Origin: an uncultured Acidobacteriota bacterium
Lineage (GTDB): Bacteria > Acidobacteriota > Terriglobia > UBA7540
Length of the DNA: 32,000 nt
Assembly (NCBI GenBank): GCA_963804755.1
Contig: CAWDRP010000028.1
Span: 46,397-78,396 of the forward strand
Reading direction: 5' to 3'
Every line of letters begins with the position of its first letter. Position 1 is the stretch's first letter. This document shows, one piece after another, positions 2,218 through 32,000 of this stretch. A model generated the notes under the pieces. It ran no database searches, was not told where the DNA came from, and was given only the letters and a program-made list of their open reading frames with translations. The translations under genes were made by a program, and so were the position numbers.

Positions 2218-2271
2218 GTGCCACGGGCGTCCCGCCCGTGCCCGAGCATGACCAGGATGGCCATGGCACAA
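2218..2271. repeat. REP-like palindromic repeat, left copy flanking the RAYT-like gene
   Basis: GTGCCACGGGCGTCCCGCCCGTGCCCGAGCATGACCAGGATGGCCATGGCACAA recurs at 2935-2988 with a single mismatch (2251 A vs G). It contains the hairpin CACGGGCG-TCC-CGCCCGTG. Confidence 0.8.
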
Positions 2272-2294
2272 CGCGCAACATAAAGCTTTTGCGA

Positions 2295-2918
2295 ATGACT
2301 AAACACCCCTACGAACCGCGCGGCATCGCCATTCGCCATGGCGCATACCTTCCCCATTGGACACGGGAGAGCGCAATCTACGCGATTAATTTTCATCTGG
2401 CCGACTCGTTGCCGAAGTCGGTCGTTAAAGCCTGGGAATTTGAGCGTCTCGACATCATCAGGACCGCGCAACAATTGAACCGCCCCCTGACCCTTGCCGA
2501 GGAGACTCGGCTGGACAAGCTCTATTCCGAGAAAGTCGAAACGTACCTGGACGCAGGTGCAGGCGCATGTTGGATGCAAAGAGACGACGTGGCGGGAGTG
2601 GTAGCGGGTGCGCTTCTTTACTTCGAGGGGGTAAGATATCGCCTTGCTGCTTGGTGTGTGATGCCGAACCACGTTCACGCCGTCATGCAGCCGCTACCAG
2701 GTTATGAGCTTCCGGGAATTGTGCATTCGTGGAAATCATTCACCGCCAAGGAAGCGAACCGTCTGCTGGGAAGGACCGGGCGGGTCTGGCAACCTGAGCC
2801 GTACGATCACCTGATTCGGGATGAAGACGACTTCCAGCGCCAAGTGGAGTACGTCCTCGCTAATCCCGTACGCGCCGGCTTGATGAATTGGAAATGGGTA
2901 GGTGGTGGCACGGAGTGA
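2295..2918 (+). CDS. Y1/HUH transposase-like protein of the REP-associated (RAYT / IS200-like, COG1943-type) group
   Basis: HUH motif in CVMPNHVHAVMQP. The C-terminal WQPEPYDHLIRDEDDFQRQVEYVLANPVRAGL is typical of this family. The start is placed at the internal ATG at 2295, because 2238-2294 of the track ORF lies inside the REP repeat. The gene is flanked by direct copies of a 54-bp palindromic repeat. Confidence 0.75.
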   Translation: MTKHPYEPRGIAIRHGAYLPHWTRESAIYAINFHLADSLPKSVVKAWEFERLDIIRTAQQLNRPLTLAEETRLDKLYSEKVETYLDAGAGACWMQRDDVAGVVAGALLYFEGVRYRLAAWCVMPNHVHAVMQPLPGYELPGIVHSWKSFTAKEANRLLGRTGRVWQPEPYDHLIRDEDDFQRQVEYVLANPVRAGLMNWKWVGGGTE

Positions 2919-4280: not shown

Positions 4281-4758
4281 AGCCCGCGGAGCGGGCGCCA
4301 TCATTTAGCCCATGGCGACAGCCATGGGACAACGAACGAATCAATAGATTTCATTCAGCCCGCGGAGCGGGTGCCATCATTTAGCCCATGGCGACAGAAC
4401 GTGATAAAAAATTTACAATCTCGCGCAGAGACGCAGAGGCGCAGAGGTCTGAAATAAATAAATGCTTTATTTTCTTTGTCGACTCCGCGCCTCTGCGTCT
4501 CTGCGCGAGGTACTTTTGCTCGTTCCGGAATTTCTTCGCAGCTTCACAGCCATGGGACAACGAACGGCCCAACAAGTTTGATTAAGCCCGCGAAGCGGGC
4601 GCGATCATTTAGCCCATGGCGACAGCCATGGGACAACGAACGAATCAATAGATTTCATTCAGCCCGCGGAGCGGGCGACATCATTTAGCCCATGGCGACA
4701 GCCATGGGACAAAGAACGGCCCAACGAGTTTGATTAAGCCCGCGAAGCGGGCGACATC
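4281..4758. repeat. Tandem array of about 76-bp REP-like units (4 full copies plus 1 partial) upstream of the IS200-like gene
   Basis: The unit is AGCCCGCGGAGCGGGCgcCATCATTTAGCCCATGGCGACAGCCATGGGACAACGAACG plus one of two alternating about 18-nt tails (AATCAATAGATTTCATTC or GCCCAACAAGTTTGATTA). Copies start at 4281, 4357 (interrupted), 4585, 4661 and 4737 (partial). Each unit has two hairpins, GCCCGC-GGA-GCGGGC and CCCATGGC-GACA-GCCATGGG. Confidence 0.85.
4398..4549. repeat. About 152-bp palindromic MITE-like element nested in the loop of a REP hairpin
   Basis: It splits REP copy 2 between GCGACAG and CCATGGG, with ACAG present at both junctions. Internal long inverted repeat CTCGCGCAGAGACGCAGAGGCGC ... 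GCGCCTCTGCGTCTCTGCGCGAG. A related element sits at 5481-5637. Confidence 0.6.
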
Positions 4759-12406: not shown

Positions 12407-13432
12407 ATGGATCACCCATTGTGTCCGCGTTATACGTTCGACACGTTCGTCGCGAGCGGATATAACCAGTTTGCTTACGCGGCCGCGCAAGCCGTGGCGG
12501 CAAGTCCCGGGAAATCGTATAACCCGCTGTATATCTACGGCGCCGTGGGGCTGGGGAAGACGCATCTGATGCAGGCCATTGGCCACGCGATCAAGGGAAA
12601 ATGGCCGGAGATGCGCGTGGCCTATGTTTGCGCCGAGACTTTCAGCAACGAGCTCATCACCGCCCAACGCCACGATCGCCTGGATTCATTCCGCCATAGC
12701 TACCGGAGCTTGGACGTGTTGCTGATGGACAGCATCCACTTCATCCCCGGGAAGAAACCAACGGAAAACGAGTTCCTCCACATTTTCAAGCTCTTGCATC
12801 AGGAAGATAAGCAGGTGGTGGTCACCAGCGACTGCCCGCCCAAGGACCTCCCGGAGTTGGATGAGCGCCTGCGCGAATGCTTCGGCTGGGGGTTAGTCGC
12901 TGACCTGCAACCTTCTGACATTGAAACCCGGCGGGTGATCCTGGCGAAGAAATGTCAGGACCAGGGGATCGAGCTGCCCGACGATGTTAGCGAATTCATC
13001 GCGCAAAAGTTCGAGTCGAGCGTCCGTGATCTCGAAGGAGCTCTGGTGCGCGTGCACGCCTATGCTTCTCTCACCGGCGCGCCCATCACCCTCTCGATGG
13101 CGCAAAGCGTGCTCAAGAGCATGATTGACCCCATGGAGTCACGCATCTCCATCGAAGAAATCCAGCGCGCGGTCTGCCGGGAATTCGGCCTCAGCGTGCC
13201 ACAATTGAAGGCCAAGAGTGTGACCCGGCGGTTCTCTTACCCAAGGCAGATTGCGATGTACCTTGCCAAGGAGTTGACCTCCGCATCGCTGCCGCAAATT
13301 GGCAGGGAGTTCGGGGGAAAGCACCATACCACCGTGCTGCATGCGATCAACAAGATTGCAGAGCTGCGAGACTGTGACAGGGACCTGAACAGGCTGCTTA
13401 AGAAGCTAAGAGACAGTCTTGATACAGCGTAG
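12407..13432 (+). CDS. dnaA: DnaA-family protein comprising only domains III (AAA+) and IV (DNA binding), with domains I-II absent
   Basis: It begins directly at PRYTFDTFV. Walker A GAVGLGKTHL, box VII-like ERLRECFGWGL, sensor 2 SSVRDLEGAL, and domain IV YPRQIAMYLAKELTSASLPQIGREFGGKHHTTVLHA are present. The upstream gene ends at 12371, so there is no room for domains I-II. Confidence 0.85.
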   Translation: MDHPLCPRYTFDTFVASGYNQFAYAAAQAVAASPGKSYNPLYIYGAVGLGKTHLMQAIGHAIKGKWPEMRVAYVCAETFSNELITAQRHDRLDSFRHSYRSLDVLLMDSIHFIPGKKPTENEFLHIFKLLHQEDKQVVVTSDCPPKDLPELDERLRECFGWGLVADLQPSDIETRRVILAKKCQDQGIELPDDVSEFIAQKFESSVRDLEGALVRVHAYASLTGAPITLSMAQSVLKSMIDPMESRISIEEIQRAVCREFGLSVPQLKAKSVTRRFSYPRQIAMYLAKELTSASLPQIGREFGGKHHTTVLHAINKIAELRDCDRDLNRLLKKLRDSLDTA

Positions 13433-19171: not shown

Positions 19172-19609
19172 TCACCCTTCCGAGGCTTCGGCGAGCAGCC
19201 GCTCGCGTGCGGCCGTGTACCTGGCGTGCCGACTGGCCGCATCGGGGTCGACGGGCAACGCGCGTTGCGGATCCAGGTTGTCAGCCAGGTCGGCCAGTTT
19301 CACCTGCCGCGCCAACGGATTCGTCGCGACTCGCTCGATCATGGCTTCATAGGTCTCTCCCCTCCGGCGCGTCAGGCAATCCACGGCTGCGCGAACCTGC
19401 TCGCTGTACCCGGCGGATTTCAAGTCGGACAGGGTGACGGAGGTATCTTCCAATACGTCATGCAACACGCCGACCCTGCGGGCGGCATCCTCGTTCTGCC
19501 GGAGCATGACGCGGAGGACATGCAGAATATACGGCTCCCCTCCCTTGTCCACCTGACCACGGTGAGCCTGGGAAGCGAGAATAATGGCGTCTTCAAGCGT
19601 GGGTGTCAT
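19172..19609 (-). CDS. Small HD-domain hydrolase of the RelA/SpoT (RSH) hydrolase type (small-alarmone-hydrolase-like)
   Basis: 145 aa. AHRGQVDKGGEPYILHVLRV, VGVLHDVLEDT and ARQVKLADLADNLD match the HD_4 / (p)ppGpp-hydrolase motif layout. The ATG at 19609 overlaps the upstream gene's stop (19593-19595) by 17 nt. Confidence 0.8.
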   Translation of the reverse strand: MTPTLEDAIILASQAHRGQVDKGGEPYILHVLRVMLRQNEDAARRVGVLHDVLEDTSVTLSDLKSAGYSEQVRAAVDCLTRRRGETYEAMIERVATNPLARQVKLADLADNLDPQRALPVDPDAASRHARYTAARERLLAEASEG

Positions 19610-21908
19610 TTTGTTCCAGTTTTACCAGGGAATAGCCGAGTTCGGGCAGGTACTTGAGAATTGCCTGGACCGTCGCCAAGTCGAGGGGGCGGACTTCGTT
19701 GGGAAGCTCGTCGAAGGGCAGAATGTTCGGGTTCAAACGGAGTGCCGGACTCTTAGGGCCATGCGTCCAGCCGCTTTGCAAAAGCTCGCGCAGCCAACGG
19801 TCATGTTCGAGACGCTGCAGCCTCTGCAGCTCATGCGGAGGGATCGCGGTCGATGGCGTGTTCGGGCAGCCGCGAACCAGCCGATAGCCACAACCGACCA
19901 GTGCTGTAAGCGTCGAGCGGACGCTGCTGCGGTTGCTTTCCTTCTTGTTGTCGGGCAGCTTGTCGAAACACACATCGTTGGGGTTCGGCTCTGGTCCGGG
20001 CACGATTTTTGCACGGTAGGCATCGTGAGTGGCGATCGCCAAGACCTCAATCTCGGCAAGGCCCAGCAACAGCTCTCTGACCCCGGTTTCGAAATCTGCG
20101 GTAACGTGGAGCCTCAACAGATCGCTGGAAGGCAATGCTGCTGCGCCAAATTGCGACGCCTTGGCCAGGTTGCTCATGCTGACGATCGACTCGATGGAGC
20201 GGGCACCGTGCTCGTAACGCGTGGCGCTAAGAAAGGCCCGGACTACACTCGCGTCAATGGCCAGATGCTTGGAGATGGGGTCAAGAAGATGAGGAGCGTG
20301 CCTCCGCACGTGACTTCTCAGCATGATGGCGCGGCGTATGATGTGCGCGTGGCCTGAGGCCCCTGCCTCCGGATTCGGGCCCTTGACATCAATATGTCCT
20401 CGCAGGCGGCTGACGAAGTCCGGCCCTTTTTGCTTTTTGAAATGATCATACTCAGGCGTGTCGGGTTTCTGCGCGTCGGGTTTCTTATGGAACTCGGCCA
20501 AGCTTGCGGACGTCCCCCCGGCAAAAACAAAAATTGCTTTTCCGAACGGGTAATGCATCCCCCCAGCATGGAACTGGGCATCCTGCATGGGGCAGAGGAA
20601 GTCTTTCAGCCACTTGAGGTCGCCGGTATCAAACTCGTCCCAGAAGACAAACGGCATCCGGCCCTGGGTGGCGGCATCGCGAATCCGGTGGAATGCCGTG
20701 TGCAGATCCTCGGGTTTCGCCATTTGCGACAGGTTGAAGTCGTAGCCCGACGCTGAGTCGCCAGCGACATCTCGCATCAGTTCTTTGACGGCGAATGACT
20801 TCCCGGAACCGGGCGGACCAAATACCGCGAAAGACAAGGGGCGCGTGTCTTTACTATTGCTAAGATAGGTGACGATCAGATTGCGGACCGAGTTGAGGCA
20901 CTCAATCTCGCTGCGGTCCACGGTGAAGTACTTTCCGAAGTTTGCTTTCGGCACGGGCTTTAGTGCGACCTCCGGACCGCGCAGGACGACATCGACGCCC
21001 GTTGAAACGACCGAATCAAGACCCGCTCCGGTGAAATCTTCCAGCAAGTCCGACTGCGTGGCCGGCCGGGCGCGGAGTTTCGTATCGTCGAAGGTGCCGT
21101 GCGGAAACGCCGTGAAGTAGGTCGAAGCCGGCTCGCCCTTTTCCGGGTGGAGTATCCTGCTGAGGTATTTCATCGAAAGATCGGGGCGGCTTTGTGAAAG
21201 GGAGCCGGCGCCCTTCGCATGGTACTCGCGCGCGGCTGCTAAGGCGCGGCCCAAGGCAACATATAAAGGGTAGGACCCGGGGTCCAGCACCTGCCGCACC
21301 AGCGCCGCGGCGCCAATCTCAACCGTGTGGCGAACCAAGCCGGGGCGTTTCGCCGCCCAGGTTCCCTCCAGAAAATCCGGATCATAGAGGCAGCGTTCAA
21401 ACTGCACGCGTTCCGAGAGTCCCCCGCCAGGGGTGCCGTGGAGCGGCAGGCGCGTGAAGCTGGCGGCCCCATCCGTGCCGAATACCACCACAACACGCCG
21501 AACGAGCGCCAGGCGGTTGGCGAATCGTTCCCCCAAAAGTTCCCCGGTCGTCTCCTCAATGGTCGCGTCCCACGAGAGTGGCGCCCTTATTGCCGCGCCA
21601 TATGAACGAAGGGTATCTGCCGACACGACTACGGTGAGCCGGTCACCACACACCTTCAGAAGATGTCCCCAAAGCTGGCCCTGAAACAGCGGCGCCACCG
21701 TGGTCAGAATGACATGCTCAGGCCTTCCACCCTGCCGGAGAGCCGCCGGCCAATTCTCCGGCGTGTCTCGGAATCCCAGGGAGCAGTCCGCAATCGCCAG
21801 GACGTCCGGACTGGCGGTTACGTCGCGTCCCCATGACAGCTTTGGTTTGCGCTGCCGCTTGAAGCCTAGTATTACTATGTTAAGTCGTATCCTCAAAAAT
21901 TTGTTCAA
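19593..21908 (-). CDS. AAA+ ATPase with a C-terminal tandem RyR-like module. This is the 3' portion of a gene interrupted by an IS; native sequence ends at 21869
   Basis: Walker A FGPPGSGKSFAV (~20786-20822) and Walker B FVFWDEFD (~20628-20651). The C-terminus IATHDAYRAKI...LPDNKKESNRSSV...GYRLV followed by LEHDRWLRELLQSGWTHG...LNPNILPFDELPNEVRPLDLATVQAILKYLPELGYSLV is RyR-domain-like. The first 13 codons of the track ORF (from a TTG at 21908) are IS terminal-repeat sequence, not native. Confidence 0.75.
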   Translation of the reverse strand: MNKFLRIRLNIVILGFKRQRKPKLSWGRDVTASPDVLAIADCSLGFRDTPENWPAALRQGGRPEHVILTTVAPLFQGQLWGHLLKVCGDRLTVVVSADTLRSYGAAIRAPLSWDATIEETTGELLGERFANRLALVRRVVVVFGTDGAASFTRLPLHGTPGGGLSERVQFERCLYDPDFLEGTWAAKRPGLVRHTVEIGAAALVRQVLDPGSYPLYVALGRALAAAREYHAKGAGSLSQSRPDLSMKYLSRILHPEKGEPASTYFTAFPHGTFDDTKLRARPATQSDLLEDFTGAGLDSVVSTGVDVVLRGPEVALKPVPKANFGKYFTVDRSEIECLNSVRNLIVTYLSNSKDTRPLSFAVFGPPGSGKSFAVKELMRDVAGDSASGYDFNLSQMAKPEDLHTAFHRIRDAATQGRMPFVFWDEFDTGDLKWLKDFLCPMQDAQFHAGGMHYPFGKAIFVFAGGTSASLAEFHKKPDAQKPDTPEYDHFKKQKGPDFVSRLRGHIDVKGPNPEAGASGHAHIIRRAIMLRSHVRRHAPHLLDPISKHLAIDASVVRAFLSATRYEHGARSIESIVSMSNLAKASQFGAAALPSSDLLRLHVTADFETGVRELLLGLAEIEVLAIATHDAYRAKIVPGPEPNPNDVCFDKLPDNKKESNRSSVRSTLTALVGCGYRLVRGCPNTPSTAIPPHELQRLQRLEHDRWLRELLQSGWTHGPKSPALRLNPNILPFDELPNEVRPLDLATVQAILKYLPELGYSLVKLEQNDTHA

Positions 21909-23252
21909 ACTTCGTTCCGCAGAAGGGACAGAGTCCGCTCCATCTCACCAGCCAGGGCTGGATCGTGCGGAGAATCTGTTCCCACGTCGCACCAGAAGTT
22001 TTTTTTACGCCGTAAGTAGACGGTCAGGATAAAGAGATAAGCCACGGCGGAAAGCACCAAGTGATGATGAAAGCCTCGCCACGAGCGGCCTTCGAAATGG
22101 TCCAACCCCAAGTCATCCTTGGAGCGCTGGAAGTATTGTTCGATGTGCCAGCGGGAACGGCTCAGTTTCAAGCAACGGGCCTTGGTGGGAGGAGCGTGGA
22201 GATGGGCCAAGTAATAATGATAGGGCGCAGGGTCCCCTGCCGGCCAGTCCACCACCAGCCAGACTTTTTCCAGTTCGCCCCCCGCGTGGCGCAAGTCGTG
22301 TTGCAGAAAAACCTCTCGCCAAGCCAGCCGCGTGCGCTGGGTTTGGCCGCCCGCCGTTACCCAAGAACACTTCTTCCATTCGTTCTCCGGGATGCGGCCG
22401 GTCAACTCCGCCAAGGTGGTGGCGGGAGGTTCCCCGTCACAGACGTAACGGCGCACCCGCTTGACCTCGGTCCGCACTTCGCGGTCCCATCCCTTGAGCG
22501 CCTGCCCGTCGACTTGCAGAAAAAACTCCATGTCCAACGCCCGCACCCCGGCGCGAAAATCCGCGTTGTTGCCGTAGGCGCTATCCCCCAAGACCGGTGC
22601 CGGAGGAACTCCGTCGTGCCGCGCTTGGCGCAGGATCCCCAGCGCCAGCTCCGGCTTGGTGGCAAACCTCACTTCCGGCGGGACTCCGGCGGCCTGGCAG
22701 CGTTCCCGGTCGGCGGTCCAGCGCTCGGGCAGATACAGCCGCCCGCCCACCGGCGCGGCAATCCATCCGTCGCTCACCACCACTTCCACGCTCACTTGAC
22801 AGTTGGCCTGCTTGCCCACCGCCCCACAATATTGATGCGAAACTCCCACCGAGTGCGAGCCCTGTTTGACCCAGCCGGTTTCATCCACCACCCAGGCCTC
22901 CAGCGGCTCCAAGTGCGGAATGATCTCCTGCCGGATCGCGCGCCACAACTCTTCCTCGCTCCAGGGACTGTCGGTAACAAACTGCTGCAGACTTTGCGAG
23001 TCCACACCCAGGCGCTCGGCCATGGGGATGATCGATTTGCGCTGCCCCGGCATCAACAGCCCTTCCACGTAGCGTGTGGCCGCCACGCGCCGCTCACTTC
23101 GGCCCAGCCCGGCAATCAGCGGATTCAAAAACTCAAGGAATTGTGCCACGCTTTCTTTCCAAAGCTTGCCATTCCAGCGCATGGGCTTCATGGGCCCATG
23201 CTAAGTCATTCGAAGGAGAATTTCAAGAACTACTTAACATAGTAATACTAGG
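21865..23252 (-). mobile_element. IS701-family-like insertion sequence (~1.38 kb) inserted into the AAA+/RyR gene
   Basis: Perfect 21-bp terminal inverted repeats CCTAGTATTACTATGTTAAGT (21865-21885) and ACTTAACATAGTAATACTAGG (23232-23252). CTAG at both junctions (21866-21869, 23248-23251) is consistent with a 4-bp target duplication. There is a single transposase ORF. Confidence 0.85.
21905..23191 (-). CDS. DDE transposase, IS701-family-like
   Basis: 428 aa. The N-terminal ...GRSERRVAATRYVEGLLMPGQRKSIIPMAERLGVDSQSLQQFVTDSPWSEEELW matches the characteristic IS701/DDE_5-type N-terminus. It lies between the 21-bp terminal inverted repeats. Confidence 0.8.
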   Translation of the reverse strand: MKPMRWNGKLWKESVAQFLEFLNPLIAGLGRSERRVAATRYVEGLLMPGQRKSIIPMAERLGVDSQSLQQFVTDSPWSEEELWRAIRQEIIPHLEPLEAWVVDETGWVKQGSHSVGVSHQYCGAVGKQANCQVSVEVVVSDGWIAAPVGGRLYLPERWTADRERCQAAGVPPEVRFATKPELALGILRQARHDGVPPAPVLGDSAYGNNADFRAGVRALDMEFFLQVDGQALKGWDREVRTEVKRVRRYVCDGEPPATTLAELTGRIPENEWKKCSWVTAGGQTQRTRLAWREVFLQHDLRHAGGELEKVWLVVDWPAGDPAPYHYYLAHLHAPPTKARCLKLSRSRWHIEQYFQRSKDDLGLDHFEGRSWRGFHHHLVLSAVAYLFILTVYLRRKKNFWCDVGTDSPHDPALAGEMERTLSLLRNEV

Positions 23253-23560
23253 TGCCTGTCGATCCGCCAGATGCGATCCTTAGGCTCGAGCTCCTCACCC
23301 TGCACGGGTGCACACGGCGACCACAACGCCACGGCGCGGGCGGCTGCCGCTGTTGGCAGCGGGGCGGATACGGTCCAGTCAACATTCTGCGGCTGCTCCA
23401 ATGCCATCTGGATATAGTCGGCGAGCCGCCACGCCCCTCCGTGTTCCTCCTGAACGTCGAGTGAACAGTTAGCGCCTGCTCGGCAAGCCGCCATCGCGTC
23501 GTCAACAAAGATGTTCTCCTGAATCAGCAAGTCACCGGCAACAACAACTGTTTTCGCCAT
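23252..23560 (-). pseudogene. 5' fragment (103 codons) of the IS-interrupted AAA+/RyR gene
   Basis: ATG at 23560 is preceded by GGAGGTGGGAACG. It reads MAKTVVVAGDLLIQENIFVDD...EEHGGAWRLADYIQMAL...RIWRIDRH, then runs into the IS end. After conceptual IS removal it joins in frame to LGFKRQRKPKLSWGRDV at 21869. Confidence 0.8.
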
Positions 23561-27701: not shown

Positions 27702-27731
27702 CATGCTCGGTAACGCCGCTCCAGGTGAGCT

Positions 27732-27965
27732 ATGGGTGGTATCCCTCTCGCTGGCCGGTTGACCAGCCTGAATAATCTTCCCGCCTTGCTCTGCAGCAAG
27801 GGCGACTACGCGGCGGCCGAGGCCCTATATCGTCGCGGCTTGGAGGTACGCGAGCGGGTGGTATCTCCGTCCCAGAATCCAACCCGGCGGCGATTTGCCC
27901 GCAGCCTTCGTCGCCGCTCTCAATGACCGCAGCAACCTGCCCGATCTGGAGCACCTCGAAACCTA
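27732..27965 (+). pseudogene. Decayed fragment of a TPR_12-type repeat coding sequence
   Basis: ...LTSLNNLPALLCSKGDYAAAEALYRRGLEVRERV matches the TSLNNLAxLLxxxGDYxxAExLYRRAL consensus. It then loses frame; the next frame reads ...AALNDRSNLPDLEHLET*. There is no credible start and it is bracketed by stops. Confidence 0.4.
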
Positions 27966-28435
27966 GCGAATGGCGACCGCTATGCCGCTCGATGCGCCTT
28001 GGCCGGAAGGATCTTGATGCGTCTGTGTGACAACTCTGAAACTCACCGGCGGAACCGGGTTTCCTACCGGCAGGAAAAAACGAGAAAAAAAGTGCAGCGA
28101 CGCGCTGCATGCGGGGCAATTTGTCGTCCGTGGCGATGTCTCTGGCCTTCCTCCTGCAAGCTTGGGGAGCAAGCGGCCGATGCGCCGGGCGAAATCACCC
28201 AGCCGCGCGCCTTGCCGAGGCTATGGAGCAAAGCTTACAGGTAAGTACGGGGAGCACGCAAAGCGAAACTGCCCGAACCCGAGGCGGCGCCGCTAACCCA
28301 GAATGCTACCGAAAACACAGCTTGTTAGTGATTTTTGTGAGATAGGTCAAAGTTATATGCTAAACAAAACAAGCCACTTGCCTGTTACACCGAGCTCTGA
28401 AGGGGAAACGCGCGAAATAAAAAAACGCAGGAATA

Positions 28436-28550
28436 TCCCAGAATGTTTATGAAAACAAAGGGCGTAAAACAAGGTGCTGGAGATGTCCCAGAATGTATAT
28501 GAAAATAAAGGGCGTAAAAAAGGTATCCCAGAATGTATATGAAAACAAAT
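28436..28550 (+). repeat. Three direct copies of TCCCAGAATGTWTATGAAAAYAAA in the AT-rich region upstream of the RelA/SpoT-fusion gene (possible operator/iteron sites)
   Basis: Copies start at 28436, 28486 and 28526 (spacing 50 and 40 bp). The first two extend as ...GGGCGTAAAA. A GC-richer degenerate copy, CCCAGAATGCTACCGAAAACACA, lies at 28297-28319. Confidence 0.8.
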
Positions 28551-28702
28551 CTAGTTAGGCAGCTGGCGCTACGCCCGAAATCAAGAATTCTTCCGGTTTT
28601 TTGAGGCTTCTGTACCTCGAAACGCAGCTTTTTGCATGCCAAACAGAGCTAGTTCGCAGTTTGCTACAGCCATTCATGTAGATGCGCATTCCGGGGGAAT
28701 CG

Positions 28703-31234
28703 ATGACTAATGATGAACGGCAGTGGCACCGCGACCGGTGCACAGAATACAAGGCGGAGTCTTCCATCTACCAGGCTTACGCCGGCTTTCTCGAAAAGGT
28801 CCTGAAGGTGGCTTGCCGCGACCTGGCGCCGATGGCGATCGTGCAGTCGCGCCCCAAGAGCTTCGCGAGCTTCGCCGAGAAGATGGCGCGCAAGGCGAAG
28901 AAGTACATGTCGAAGGGCATTGGCCCCACGGATCTCTGCGGCGCGCGCGTCATCACGGAGACGCAGGCGGAGGTAGACTCCATCTGCGCAGTGATTCGCG
29001 AGAACTTCGAGATCGACGTCGAGAACAGCCTGGATGTGCGGAGCAGGCTGAAGACGGAAGAGTTCGGTTATCTCTCCGTCCACTACGTCGTGCAGTTCAA
29101 GGGTGAGACGATGTTCGGCCTCTCCGTCCCGCCGGAAATCGGCAAGCGCAAGGCGGAGATCCAGGTGCGCACCCTGCTCCAACACGCCCACGCCAGTGTC
29201 AGTCATGACCGCATCTACAAGACCAGCCTGAAGGTGCAGGAACACTTGAAACGGGACCTGGCACGCGTCGCGGCGCTGCTGGAAGAAGGAGATGAGGCGT
29301 TTGGCAAGTCCGTACGCGAACTCGATGCCTACAAGCTCCACTACGGTGCCTATATGCACAGCAAGCGGTTAGCGGAGGAAACGGAGATTCTCGAGATAGT
29401 GCTGGAGAATGAAACCGACCCCTCGCAGCGGCCGCTGGTTGCTCTGCGTCTCGCCCAATTGGCCCGCGCCACCGGGAACTACGCGCGAATCGTGGAACTG
29501 CTGCAACCCTTCCTCGGCGCGGCGGGCAAGTGGGAAACCGAAGTCCTGGTCGAGCACGGGCATGCGCTTTGTCGCGTCCACGCCGACGAGCCGTCGAGTG
29601 ATGGATTCCTAAAGGGATGCACCGAAATTGAGCTTGCGCTCAAAGAAGCCGCCGGTAACCTGCAAACGCGTGCCTTGGGTTATCGCGCTTGGGCGCACGC
29701 GCAGATTCCCAACAACGAGACGAAGGCGCGCGACACTTACCGCGCTGCACTTGATGCGGACCCATCGAACCCCTTCCACCTGGCCTCGTTCCTGGAATAC
29801 GAGATCTTCCTGGGTGAGAAACTGGGCTTGCGCAATGCCCTGGCGCCGGGCTTCCAGCAGGCCATCGGCCGGTGCCGCGACTACATCGATGCGGGGATTG
29901 AAGTACCCTGGTCGTTTTTCACCATCGGGCGACTTGAGCTGCTTTTGGAATGCCCACTTGAAAGCCTGGCAGCGTACGCCAAGGCCATTCAGCTCTGCCT
30001 CGAAAAGGACAGCACGGTGCCCGCCTCGGCGCTGGAAGCGGAGATCACATTCGTGCACCGAATCAATCGCGGCCGGGAGATGCCGGAGTCGCATGCGGGC
30101 GTTCTGCAGTTGCTCCTGCTCGGCGAAGCCGTGTGGAAAGGCCAACCGCCGACGGGCTTGTCAGCCAAGCGAAAATCCTTCACCTCGCCGGTGGTCATCC
30201 TGGCGGGAGGCACGGCACAGGCCTTCCAGGCGAATATCGAGCGTTTCCGGCCAGTGGTGCTCGGGGCGTTCAAGGGCTTCAGGGGAACGCTCATCTCAGG
30301 AGGCACCAGCGCCGGTATTGCCGGGATGGCCGGCGAGATCGCGGTGGCGGAGAGGGCGGAAACAGGCGGACCGCTGGAAGTTCTCGGTTACATTCCGCGC
30401 AATCTTCCTTACGACCAGCCCGTCGACTTGCGGTATACCGACTGGGTGCCGTCGGAAGGGCTCAGCTATGGACCTGCGCACGCGCTCCAGTATTGGACCG
30501 ACCTGCTGTTAGCGGGCGTTAAACCACAGGACGTTCGCCTGCTGGGAATTGATGGCGGACCGATCTCGGCCTTCGAATACCGTCTGGCGCTGGCCCTTGG
30601 GGCTCCGGTGGGAGTGATGGAACCGCCGACGCGAGCGGCCGCGCAGGTTCTGGCCGATCCGGATTGGCGCGAATGCGGCGGCCTGATCGGCTTGCCTGAG
30701 GACGCTCGGAGTGTGCAGGTATTCCTGCAGCCTCCCAGTCCCGCCTTGACGAGCGAGCAGGTGGAAGCGGCCGCGCAGAAAATCCACGCCGCGTACCTCG
30801 AGGAGAAGCACTACGTGAATCCTGATCCCGCTATGCAACCGTGGGGGAAACTTGACGAACGCTTGCGGAACTCAAACCGCATGCAAGCGGCAGCCATTGC
30901 GGCTTTCCTGGAACGCGCGGGCTTCCACATTGAGCAGGCGGCAGCCGGGGACGAGGCGCTGGAATTTACAACTGACGACATCGAGTTGCTGGCTGAGATG
31001 GAACACGGTAGGTGGGTCGTCGAACGGCTGCAGCAAGGGTTTCGCTACAACGACGTGCGGGATATCACAAAGAAACTCCACCCTGATCTGGTGAGCTGGA
31101 GCAAGTTACCCGAAGGTGTTAGGGACTGGGACCGCTCCGCGGTGCGCAAATGGCCTGGGCTGTTGCGGGATGCAGGCCTCGCAATAAGGAGGACAGGCTG
31201 CCAGCCGCGGTCGTCGCGTCCAGTGCGGAGTTAG
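28703..31234 (+). CDS. Multidomain fusion: RelA/SpoT-type nucleotide pyrophosphokinase (small alarmone synthetase-like) + helical/TPR-like region + LOG/SLOG-like Rossmann domain + tandem RyR-like module
   Basis: Synthetase motifs: QSRPKSFASFAEKMARK, CGARVITETQAEVDSICAVI, GYLSVHYVVQF, AEIQVRTLLQHAHASVSHDRIYK. SLOG/LOG-like: VVILAGGTAQ..., LISGGTSAGIAGMAGEIA, VLGYIP, LLGIDGGPISAFEYRLALALGAPVGVM. Ryr-like: AAQKIHAAYLEEKH...LDERLRNSNRMQAAAIAAFLERAGFHI and EMEHGRWVVERLQQGFRY...LHPDLVSWSKLPEGVRDWDRSAVRKWPGLLRDAGLAI. The ATG at 28703 is preceded by GGGGGAATCG; an alternative ATG lies at 28682. Confidence 0.85.
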   Translation: MTNDERQWHRDRCTEYKAESSIYQAYAGFLEKVLKVACRDLAPMAIVQSRPKSFASFAEKMARKAKKYMSKGIGPTDLCGARVITETQAEVDSICAVIRENFEIDVENSLDVRSRLKTEEFGYLSVHYVVQFKGETMFGLSVPPEIGKRKAEIQVRTLLQHAHASVSHDRIYKTSLKVQEHLKRDLARVAALLEEGDEAFGKSVRELDAYKLHYGAYMHSKRLAEETEILEIVLENETDPSQRPLVALRLAQLARATGNYARIVELLQPFLGAAGKWETEVLVEHGHALCRVHADEPSSDGFLKGCTEIELALKEAAGNLQTRALGYRAWAHAQIPNNETKARDTYRAALDADPSNPFHLASFLEYEIFLGEKLGLRNALAPGFQQAIGRCRDYIDAGIEVPWSFFTIGRLELLLECPLESLAAYAKAIQLCLEKDSTVPASALEAEITFVHRINRGREMPESHAGVLQLLLLGEAVWKGQPPTGLSAKRKSFTSPVVILAGGTAQAFQANIERFRPVVLGAFKGFRGTLISGGTSAGIAGMAGEIAVAERAETGGPLEVLGYIPRNLPYDQPVDLRYTDWVPSEGLSYGPAHALQYWTDLLLAGVKPQDVRLLGIDGGPISAFEYRLALALGAPVGVMEPPTRAAAQVLADPDWRECGGLIGLPEDARSVQVFLQPPSPALTSEQVEAAAQKIHAAYLEEKHYVNPDPAMQPWGKLDERLRNSNRMQAAAIAAFLERAGFHIEQAAAGDEALEFTTDDIELLAEMEHGRWVVERLQQGFRYNDVRDITKKLHPDLVSWSKLPEGVRDWDRSAVRKWPGLLRDAGLAIRRTGCQPRSSRPVRS

Positions 31235-31677: not shown

Positions 31678-31752
<75 letters not shown>

Positions 31753-31807: not shown

Positions 31808-32000
31808 TTACATCACGCGCGGGCTTTTTTCTGACTGGTTCACCATGTCGAGCCTGCTTTCGACTGGCGATTGCGTATAGACGTTCTGGTTCACATCGAG
31901 ACTGTGGCCAAGCTGATCGGCGACCAGCTTGCCATCCACCCCGAGCGCCTTCATCAAAGTTGCATGGGTGCGGCGCATGACCAGAAAATTCACCCAGTCA
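31808..32000 (-). CDS. Tyrosine recombinase / phage-type integrase, C-terminal end (5' part lies beyond the window)
   Basis: ...MRRTHATLMKALGVDGKLVADQLGHSLDVNQNVYTQS carries the R...LGH...Y catalytic-region pattern of tyrosine integrases. The frame is open to base 32000. It lies 56 bp from the tRNA-Gly 3' end. Confidence 0.75.
   Translation of the reverse strand, partial: DWVNFLVMRRTHATLMKALGVDGKLVADQLGHSLDVNQNVYTQSPVESRLDMVNQSEKSPRVM

Follow-up and report, generated by a model that had tools for sequence, protein, structure and literature searches.

The closest described relatives of the protein analysed here are the small alarmone synthetases (SASs) RelQ and RelP (PDB 5DEC, 6FGK, 6EWZ and 2BE3), which share its catalytic fold and motifs and are its best matches in both sequence and structure. 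The gene in question lies in a 32,000-nucleotide stretch of DNA from an uncultured Acidobacteriota bacterium (contig CAWDRP010000028.1), and this whole stretch is referred to below as the window. Its product is an 843-amino-acid protein in which a RelA/SpoT synthetase is joined to a helical, TPR-like stretch of about 300 residues, an LSDAT/TRPM-type SLOG domain and two RyR repeats in tandem that resemble Repeat12. Whereas RelQ and RelP are about 210 amino acids long, this protein carries about 660 extra residues (TPR, SLOG and RyR) after its catalytic domain, and its family further differs from them in being patchily distributed and in occupying a conflict-type neighbourhood. We consider the chances even that the protein is a sensor-controlled RelA/SpoT-type pyrophosphokinase that carries out the effector function in a conflict (defence) system based on nucleotide signalling.

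Other known systems resemble individual parts of this arrangement. The DsRel SAS-TPR enzyme of Treponema denticola (Tde-SAS), likened here by its domain layout, also begins with a SAS followed by TPRs, but it ends after about 180 amino acids of TPR (410 in total) and lacks SLOG and RyR. The toxSAS modules (FaRel with its small alarmone hydrolase (SAH) ATfaRel, FaRel2 and CapRel) are compact operons of a synthetase and a neutralising partner, sometimes an SAH, and the partner layout of the present family is alike. CapRel carries a fused regulatory C-terminal domain, and toxSAS modules act in anti-phage growth arrest. However, in place of an SAH or a protein antitoxin this family usually has a NUDIX protein as partner, its regulatory part is made up of nucleotide-sensor domains, and its sequence is nearer to RelQ/RelP than to any solved toxSAS. 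Thoeris systems place TIR genes beside a SLOG-bearing effector enzyme (ThsA), a layout that part of the loci of this family recalls, and binding of 3' cyclic ADP-ribose (3'cADPR) to the SLOG domain switches on SIR2 in the type I systems. In contrast to Thoeris, the effector is an alarmone-type synthetase and not a SIR2, Macro-TM or caspase protein, an LSDAT/TRPM-type SLOG domain is combined with RyR, most of the nearby TIRs form fusions with STAND, TPR or FGE-sulfatase domains, and a NUDIX gene belongs to the core. The configuration was not found among the surveyed Thoeris types I-XI.

Two families of animal calcium channels, TRPM and the ryanodine receptors, and a phage protein provide the remaining parallels. 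TRPM2 couples a SLOG domain (MHR1/2) to a Nudix module (NUDT9-H), as does this family, but its output is a cation channel rather than an enzyme, the bacterial Nudix protein is MutT/NudG-like rather than NUDT9-like, and the sequence similarity to TRPM proteins is not significant (E ~1). RyR Repeat12 and the phage protein RyDEP (PF02026) have the tandem two-repeat fold and the H/W/(H)/D pocket in common with the protein studied here, whereas its own module lies at the C terminus of a cellular enzyme with several domains and has a degenerate first repeat (H/Y/N). The protein belongs to the synthetase superfamily of RelA/SpoT homologs (RSH) and has bona fide RyR and SLOG-fold domains. By analogy, its logic would be like that of a Thoeris effector (a SLOG-gated enzyme beside TIR genes) and that of a toxSAS (a synthetase with a hydrolase partner). 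A RelA/SpoT-SLOG-RyR protein is not mentioned in the toxSAS classification, two surveys from the Aravind laboratory, the RyDEP and DUF4062 preprints or the full-text searches that were made, and an earlier passing mention is possible in the work that defined SLOG/LSDAT. Within the literature searched, the architecture is apparently undescribed, as had been supposed in a preliminary description of the gene made from the DNA letters.

The gene corresponds to a single intact open reading frame (ORF) on the + strand at 28682..31234, which encodes 850 amino acids from its first start codon. We prefer the start at 28703 because it is preceded by a Shine-Dalgarno-like element (Table 1) and because the N termini of homologs and the DNA synteny begin at this position. 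An AlphaFold2 model of the whole protein built from 92 relatives is confident, with a predicted local distance difference test (pLDDT) value of 89 and a predicted template-modelling (TM) score (pTM) of 0.83. It comprises a SAS-like alpha/beta domain, a stretch (residues 180-479) that is helical throughout, an alpha/beta domain of Rossmann-like form (about 497-664) and, at the C terminus, a module of helices. A Pfam scan of the protein returned RelA_SpoT and RyR above their cut-offs and weak TPR matches, and left the middle domain without a match. The preliminary description had proposed a synthetase with its motif series, helical repeats after it, a LOG/SLOG-like Rossmann domain with two glycine motifs and a bipartite RyR-like module, and all four parts were recovered by the analyses described below. 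The possibility that the ORF is a gene-call or fusion artefact was rejected, since full-length conservation in at least 80 species and the compact, confident model speak against it. Scans of the sequence for promoters and terminators yielded the same counts as expected from shuffling.

The synthetase domain matches RelA_SpoT (PF04607) at residues 49-175 with 56.3 bits against a cut-off of 27. It carries the motifs R50-x-K52...S56...K60, G80-A-R82-V-I, G122-Y123-x-S125-x-H127 and E152-I-Q154-V-R-T...H168...Y172-K173, and its residues align with the DIAGLR and EIQIRT motifs of RelQ/RelP. These motifs, and with them residues R50, K52, S56, K60, R63, D77, G80, R82, Y123, H127, E152 and Q154, are invariant among the 92 relatives, whose identity reaches down to 37%. 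The donor-site, Mg-binding (D77) and G-loop (Y123/H127) positions, the loss of which the preliminary description had named as grounds for abandoning its reading, are all among them. In FaRel2, residues R64/K66/S70/K74/R77, D90 and Y128 have been structurally shown to bind ATP and the acceptor base (PMC11782079), and R50/K52/S56/K60/R63, D77 and Y123 are their counterparts with identical spacing. This domain is also the most conserved part of the protein, at 59% identity in distant members compared with 38% in the TPR part. Because the donor, Mg and G-loop residues are invariant, their spacing is that of FaRel2 and no other domain is as well conserved, the synthetase is very likely catalytically competent, a point on which the preliminary description had not committed itself. 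As judged from its sequence, the N-terminal domain has the full set of residues required to move pyrophosphate from ATP onto a purine nucleotide at its 3'-OH. The predicted acceptor is a G nucleotide, an A nucleotide or a tRNA, among which the sequence does not decide; enzymes that target tRNA and those that use free nucleotides are told apart by a positive patch on the acceptor side.

Comparisons with solved proteins bear on the choice of acceptor. By sequence and fold, the nearest are RelQ/RelP, with 48-75 bits and Foldseek target TM scores of 0.72-0.78, and the profile of the RelA/SpoT-SLOG-RyR family matches them at E values of 5e-20 to 9e-12. CapRel reached 24 bits and long Rel/RelA proteins 12-16 bits in the same comparison, while Tas1 and FaRel2 were not found at E<=10 when solved structures were searched with the family profile. 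Judged against solved structures, the protein does not belong to a named toxSAS subfamily (FaRel, FaRel2, PhRel, PhRel2, CapRel or Tas1). These values make it improbable that the protein is a translation-targeting toxSAS that modifies tRNA and whose C-terminal domains act as a fused antitoxin or sensor as in CapRel. The similarity to CapRel is weak, FaRel2 goes undetected, and the MutT/NudG-like NUDIX partner described below suits a free-nucleotide product better. On the other side, the logic of the fused regulatory C terminus is CapRel-like, and the best PADLOC match of the synthetase domain is the single-gene defence candidate PDC-S33 (E 1.4e-13). The SYNTH core is also preceded by a long N-terminal helix, a feature that recalls the N-terminal extension by which FaRel2 anchors tRNA (PMC11782079). 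In its favour as well, SAH enzymes neutralise every toxSAS tested, including the tRNA-targeting CapRel, PhRel2, FaRel2 and PhRel (PMC7229694).

The synthetase is followed by a region that is entirely helical in the model, has weak matches to TPR families, and is the structured part of the protein with the greatest variability and the most indels. The domain beyond it was assigned by fold search and family-level scan because the window's copy has no significant Pfam match of its own. Since whole-model Foldseek searches were dominated by SAS and RyR matches, this middle domain was modelled separately (pLDDT 95.6). The top Foldseek matches of the isolated domain are the MHR1/2 regions of TRPM2/4/5/7/8 (E 1e-7 to 1e-5, query TM score ~0.6), including ADP-ribose (ADPR)-bound and ATP-bound structures. 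They are followed by MCP (Mo-cofactor carrier protein, 2IZ5) and LOG proteins (5ZBK and 7W2I), and all of these matches fall within E 1e-7 to 3e-5. At the family level, LSDAT_prok (PF18171) is the top family in 28 of 29 relatives (E<=1, best E 6.4e-12), and some relatives pass its cut-off of 25.4 bits (for example P0213, at 25.6). When the PDB was searched by sequence with the family profile, SLOG structures were not found and TRPM2 appeared only at E ~1.

Conserved residues of the SLOG domain include G502, G528, S532-G-G-T535, G538, G541, Y563, D600, G618-G619 and E625. They contain its two glycine motifs, S532-G-G-T..G538..G541..G544 and G618-G619...E625. The preliminary description had placed the domain at 30185-30630; its start is correct, whereas the end extends to about 30700. 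Burroughs and colleagues reportedly named LSDAT in 2015 for its link to a two-transmembrane (SLATT-type) module. Neither a transmembrane (TM) segment nor a SLATT domain was found in the protein by Pfam scan or in the AlphaFold2 model, and a separate SLATT protein is encoded at just three of the 81 loci examined below. The classical SLOG-SLATT pairing does occur beside the RSH-SLOG-RyR gene, in a 550-amino-acid neighbour (L054:8129-9778, + strand, and two other loci; cluster 22) that combines a Nuc_deoxyrib_tr/SLOG-like N terminus with DUF4231 and a SLATT_1 two-TM effector.

The C-terminal module matches RyR (PF02026) with 44.4 bits at residues 760-828 of the whole protein (cut-off 27.4), and with 50.1 bits in two stretches when the C terminus is scanned alone. 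The family profile likewise matches Repeat12 (R12 chimera 6UHI) in two stretches (E 8e-31), and the Foldseek alignment with human RyR3 Repeat12 spans about 200 columns. These two-stretch matches and the long structural alignment indicate that the module is truly tandem. In the second repeat, H768, W771 and D810 are conserved in 100%, 97% and 99% of the family, respectively. The window protein retains H793, a position occupied by Ser in 79% of the family. Residues H879 and W882 of RyR1 are the aligned counterparts of H768 and W771, and the spacing of H768/W771/H793/D810 is exactly that of H75/W78/H100/D117 in RyDEP. The first repeat conserves H695, Y/F698 and N725, with Asn where the second repeat has an acid. 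A tblastn search of the module against phages gave one weak match, and in BFVD, RelA/SpoT and RyR proteins of phages occur separately, with no instance of the combined architecture found.

Characterised relatives of the SLOG and RyR domains bind ADPR, cyclic ADPR (cADPR) isomers, ATP or ADP. RyR Repeat12 reportedly binds ADP or ATP together with dantrolene, and the RY12 domain of RyR1 is described as an ADP sensor. Phage RyDEP binds or cleaves 2'/3'cADPR, with residues H75/W78/H100/D117 binding and cleaving 3'cADPR (PMC13232231). At the level of fold, family and pocket residues, the C-terminal SLOG and tandem RyR domains are thus predicted nucleotide-binding modules. The conservation of the RyDEP dyad H75/D117 and of W78 as H768/D810/W771 (97-100% in the family), together with the H100 equivalent H793 in the window protein, raises the possibility that the RyR module has an enzyme activity of its own, cutting 2'/3'cADPR as a RyDEP-like glycosidase and so ending an incoming signal. 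This function, which would be compatible with the other readings, has a small likelihood of being correct. Besides RyDEP of phage DyoEdafos, none of eight tested homologs degraded the signal and six of the eight bound it, despite high conservation (PMC13232231). The prevalence of Ser at position 793 across the family and the Asn in the first repeat also argue against catalysis.

The full architecture is represented by more than 100 clusters at 90% identity, and a search of about 185,000 species-representative genomes gave 419 matches. The best 80 of these 419 are all full-length, all come from metagenome-assembled genomes (MAGs), and span more than 15 bacterial phyla as well as archaeal-binned contigs. 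Annotations in the source databases read only 'ppGpp synthetase/RelA/SpoT-type nucleotidyltransferase', 'RyR domain-containing protein' or 'hypothetical'. The SLOG+RyR half alone is found in 581 representatives of 50%-identity clusters (E<=1e-30). In protein P0161 this unit is fused to a Ser/Thr kinase, at a locus with TIR_2-FGE, SIR2_2-TIR_2, SLATT and nSTAND genes, and the fusion shows that SLOG+RyR is a sensor unit portable between output domains. Stand-alone SLOG+RyR proteins were not established as a class, the one that was checked beginning at a contig edge. In relative P0013 (936 amino acids, 77% identical over 85% of the query), RelA_SpoT is listed with Na_H_Exchanger (PF00999) in place of RyR in a precomputed Pfam list, and this may reflect either a real cation/proton antiporter fusion or a gene-call artefact.

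Archaea normally do without (p)ppGpp signalling. Full-length members are nevertheless present at loci L030, L047, L066, L074 and L079 on contigs of up to 344 kb binned as Bathyarchaeia, Methanobacterium and Methanoregulaceae. These assignments rest on MAG binning and, if genuine, place an RSH-type synthetase system in archaea.

Patchiness across many phyla is as expected for a mobile conflict system, and it speaks against an everyday physiological function. We give little credence to the protein being a housekeeping (p)ppGpp synthetase whose activity follows the energy or NAD status of the cell (through ADP/ATP at RyR and ADPR at SLOG) in normal stress physiology. It is true that the catalytic domain is closest to the housekeeping SASs RelQ/RelP, that the DsRel SAS-TPR enzymes are regular alarmone synthetases, and that RY12 of RyR1 is described as sensing ADP. 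The gene is also chromosomal, with no phage or plasmid signature seen. However, 419 of about 185,000 species representatives in more than 15 phyla plus archaea is a very patchy spread for such a role. The gene is found amid STAND, TIR, SLATT and DUF4062 genes, the neighbourhood in the window is hypervariable and carries an insertion sequence (IS), and close operon linkage to a degrading enzyme is what toxin-antitoxin-like modules typically show.

Gene neighbourhoods were compared at 81 non-redundant loci by ORF clustering and six-frame hidden Markov model searches; many of the contigs are short, and the median total flank is about 18 kb. A NUDIX gene encoding about 143 amino acids is present at 60 of the 81 loci, nearly always abutting or overlapping the synthetase gene on the same strand, either upstream or downstream. 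A minimal operon of these two genes occurs at 46 loci, and in P0217 they form one polypeptide (NUDIX-RelA_SpoT-TPR-LSDAT_prok-RyR). The NUDIX protein is the family's main conserved partner and is absent from the window; like the NADase association considered below, it had gone unnoticed in the preliminary description. A conserved operon with a putative neutralising partner is accordingly a feature of the family and not of this locus. It resembles MutT, NudG and NudI rather than ADPR pyrophosphatases; MutT and NudG break (p)ppGpp down to pGp, both in vitro and in vivo (PMC5845004).

Four loci without NUDIX (the window, L001, L006 and L007, which make up the window's clade) instead encode a small SpoT-type HD hydrolase, which occurs only where NUDIX is missing. 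The preliminary description had pointed to this gene in the window, at 19172-19609, as a possible partner, and the choice proved well founded: the product is a SpoT-type hydrolase (E 2e-12) that is conserved near the synthetase gene in this clade. At these loci the hydrolase gene is translationally coupled to a gene for an AAA ATPase with a tandem RyR module. Proteins of this AAA-RyR family are encoded at 20 of the 81 loci. Another RyR protein, TM-TrkA_N-RyR, is encoded at 15 (L072:1168-2961, - strand, and 14 others; cluster 4). It combines TM segments at the N terminus with two TrkA_N/RCK-like Rossmann domains and the tandem RyR module that the synthetase has, and is a candidate nucleotide-gated membrane or ion-transport effector.

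The recurrence of RyR modules at these loci suggests another way of ordering the components. The synthetase could be a signal generator that makes a 3'-pyrophosphorylated second messenger, which would be read by the AAA-RyR and TM-TrkA_N-RyR effectors and degraded by NUDIX or HD, while SLOG-RyR in cis would provide product feedback, like that of pppGpp on RelQ. The tandem module and its H/W/D pocket are common to all three RyR proteins, the minimal NUDIX operon encodes no nucleotide-generating enzyme other than the synthetase, and the NudG/MutT-like NUDIX and the SpoT-type HD are both of alarmone-acting types. The presence of the family on archaeal-binned contigs, where classical stringent-response targets are not expected, also fits. 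We nonetheless regard this arrangement as rather unlikely. At 61 of the 81 loci there is no second RyR protein within 10 kb, a SLOG+RyR unit on a kinase in a TIR-rich locus suits a sensor of an external signal better, and characterised RyR-type domains bind ADP, ATP, ADPR or cADPR isomers, not alarmones. It would also leave the association with TIR and DUF4062 genes, considered next, unexplained.

TIR-like ORFs lie within 10 kb of the synthetase gene at 37 of the 81 loci and DUF4062 genes at 25; TIR_2 or DUF4062 is present at 52, a raw count that is set against no genome background rate of TIR/STAND genes. Among sampled abutting ORFs, eight of eight are TIR_2 proteins (48-83 bits) fused to NB-ARC, NACHT, TPR or FGE-sulfatase, and several TIR-STAND genes begin 1-36 nt past the stop codon of the synthetase gene. 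DUF4062 is a TIR-like NADase that produces ADPR (bioRxiv 10.64898/2026.05.01.722283). Because the protein is usually encoded beside NAD-cleaving immune genes, its probable role is growth arrest under signal control in a bacterial defence system. The preliminary description had proposed a self-regulated signal generator or effector, which is borne out only in part. An effector under the control of an external nucleotide signal is favoured over a self-regulated one by the portability of SLOG+RyR, as seen in the kinase fusion, and by the TIR_2/DUF4062 association.

Our best reading, for which the balance of probability is about equal on either side, is that SLOG+RyR detects a nucleotide, either NAD-derived or adenine, and thereby frees the synthetase, with NUDIX or HD as the off-switch. 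At rest, the TPR and SLOG-RyR parts would keep the synthetase off; the TPR part of DsRel SAS-TPR (Tde-SAS) is a brake on (pp)pGpp synthesis and offers a precedent for such an off-state. Upon infection, neighbouring STAND sensors headed by TIR or DUF4062 would cleave NAD+, and an NAD-derived nucleotide (ADPR or a cADPR-type isomer) would bind SLOG and/or RyR to release the enzyme. The released synthetase would then make (pp)pGpp or (pp)pApp-type alarmones, spending ATP, and growth would be arrested. The abutting MutT/NudG-like NUDIX could degrade the alarmone, setting a threshold and permitting a reset like that given by a toxSAS hydrolase antitoxin, and the SpoT-type HD hydrolase may take over this role in the window's clade. 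AAA-RyR and TM-TrkA_N-RyR neighbours might answer the same ligand in parallel.

Several observations weigh against this sensor-gated defence effector. The synthetase is nearer to housekeeping RelQ/RelP than to known toxSASs, and PADLOC, beyond its single-gene match to PDC-S33, gave no system-level match for the neighbours, such that no system model fits. The window's own SLOG copy is under the Pfam threshold (13-14 bits, 13.9, at E 0.03-0.06). At about one third of the loci, neither TIR nor DUF4062 genes were seen in the 10 kb around the synthetase gene; many contigs of the set are short. The window's locus lacks NUDIX and a classical TIR_2 gene, with DUF4062 heads present, and an IS disrupts its AAA-RyR partner. 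The NUDIX protein does not tie the system directly to ADPR because it is not of the ADPR-pyrophosphatase type. Nor is the hydrolase argument for an alarmone product exclusive, since alarmone-type HD and Nudix enzymes are also found in ADPr-processing contexts (PMC9503650) and the SAH homolog Mesh1 reportedly hydrolyses NADPH. The ligand, the product and the toxicity are all features that we infer.

A more specific proposal, which is tentative and in our estimation doubtful, is a two-tier cascade. TIR/DUF4062 NADases would generate an ADPR- or cADPR-type signal by which SLOG+RyR switches on the alarmone synthetase, with NUDIX or SAH providing the reset; as part of the same proposal, a TRPM MHR1/2-type SLOG and Repeat12 would already be an ADPR/cADPR-sensing pair, beside Nudix, in prokaryotic conflict systems. 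If true, this would provide an evolutionary and mechanistic precedent for the gating of TRPM2 by ADPR and for the debated action of cADPR on ryanodine receptors. The nucleotide-regulatory domains of TRPM and RyR channels would then occur in one bacterial protein beside Nudix, which bears on the origin of the ligands of these channel domains. If the best reading given above is right, it would join NAD-derived immune signalling (TIR, Thoeris and DUF4062 NADases) to alarmone/toxSAS growth control. The family would represent a new and widespread kind of defence effector, with 419 species-representative genomes and 581 clusters of the sensor half at 50% identity. Moreover, it would constitute the first cellular, non-phage role of bacterial RyR-type domains, as sensors common to synthetase, kinase, AAA ATPase and TrkA-type membrane proteins.

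The features of the window's own locus are collected in Table 1. Its gene order is syntenic with that of L006, which encodes a synthetase 79% identical to that of the window and an equivalent of the DUF4062-STAND-WD40 giant.

Table 1. Coordinates of the synthetase gene, its domains and its neighbours in the window.
Feature	Coordinates	Strand	Remarks and basis
RelA/SpoT-TPR-SLOG-RyR gene	28703..31234	+	Complete, including stop, 843 aa; ORF, homologs full-length to 35% identity, AlphaFold2 model
Shine-Dalgarno-like GGGGGA	28693..28698	+	4 nt upstream of ATG 28703; read from sequence
N-terminal helix (aa 1-43) and SYNTH domain (aa 44-178)	28703..29236	+	PF04607; best PDB matches RelQ/RelP
TPR-like all-helical repeat region (aa 180-480)	29240..30142	+	DSSP on model; weak TPR_21/TPR_2 matches
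SLOG domain, LSDAT/TRPM-MHR1/2 type (aa 495-666)	30185..30700	+	Foldseek; PF18171 in relatives
RyR-like repeat 1 (aa 684-750), divergent	30752..30952	+	Second Pfam RyR stretch; tandem match to Repeat12
RyR repeat 2 (aa 757-832)	30971..31198	+	PF02026; H768/W771/H793/D810 pocket
DUF4062 (TIR-like NADase)-NACHT-TPR STAND protein, 1264 aa	23907..27701	+	Pfam; directly upstream of the synthetase gene; syntenic with L006
Small SpoT-type HD hydrolase (SAH-like), 145 aa	19172..19609	-	HD_4 E 4e-4; TIGR00691 positions 1-128 E 2e-12
AAA ATPase with C-terminal tandem RyR, 3' portion	19593..21869	-	aa 104-874 of intact ortholog; Pfam RyR 44 bits; tblastn of L006 ortholog
AAA-RyR gene, 5' fragment cut off by IS	23252..23560	-	aa 1-103; tblastn E 6.5e-32
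IS element, 1388 bp	21865..23252	-	DDE_5 transposase ORF 21905-23191, 217 bits; splits AAA-RyR
DUF4062-STAND-WD40 giant, 1755 aa	13715..18982	-	WD40 matches; N-terminal FRVFVSSTFEDL DUF4062 head E 5.6e-45, iterative search

The IS element has 24-nt terminal inverted repeats (21865-21888 and 23229-23252) that are 96% complementary, and its ends coincide with the break in the AAA-RyR gene as mapped by tblastn. Because it is split, the window's AAA-RyR copy is probably inactive. Farther downstream, the SAH-like HD gene is intact. The HD gene overlaps the AAA-RyR stop codon by 17 nt and lies 9 kb from the synthetase gene on the opposite strand. Its orthologs, which are 66-75% identical, adjoin AAA-RyR in L001 and L006, and this conservation in syntenic orthologs together with the SpoT hydrolase motifs rules out a spurious ORF.

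The spacer between the DUF4062-NACHT-TPR gene and the synthetase gene (27702-28702) is unusually long, at about 1 kb, and has a lowered GC content of 0.54; the corresponding spacer in L006 is only about 390 nt. It holds an ORF of 64 amino acids at 27732-27926 (+) that resembles a TPR_10/12 fragment (LNNLPALLCSKGDYAAAEALYRRGLEV) and is possibly the remnant of a longer or different sensor C terminus. On the other side, a tRNA-Gly(CCC) gene at 31678-31752 (+) begins 440 nt past the synthetase gene, and the C-terminal end of a tyrosine-recombinase-like (integrase) ORF at 31808-31993 (-) runs off the window. These two features may mark an integration hotspot or an island edge.

Farther from the synthetase gene, a 341-amino-acid DnaA-like protein is encoded at 12407-13432 (+), beside the conflict-gene cluster and at no obvious replication origin. 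It has the Bac_DnaA ATPase and a C-terminal helix-turn-helix, without the N-terminal domains. Two copies of the small RNA Acido-Lenti-1 (Rfam RF01687) are predicted at 4281-4328 and 4661-4708 (-), 380 nt apart, each with 38 bits, which is barely above the gathering score; they agree with the window being acidobacterial. Finally, a 226-amino-acid ORF at 2238-2918 (+) has a partial match to an IS200-like Y1 transposase (24 bits); this ORF and the DDE_5 IS are signs of mobile-element activity in this region.

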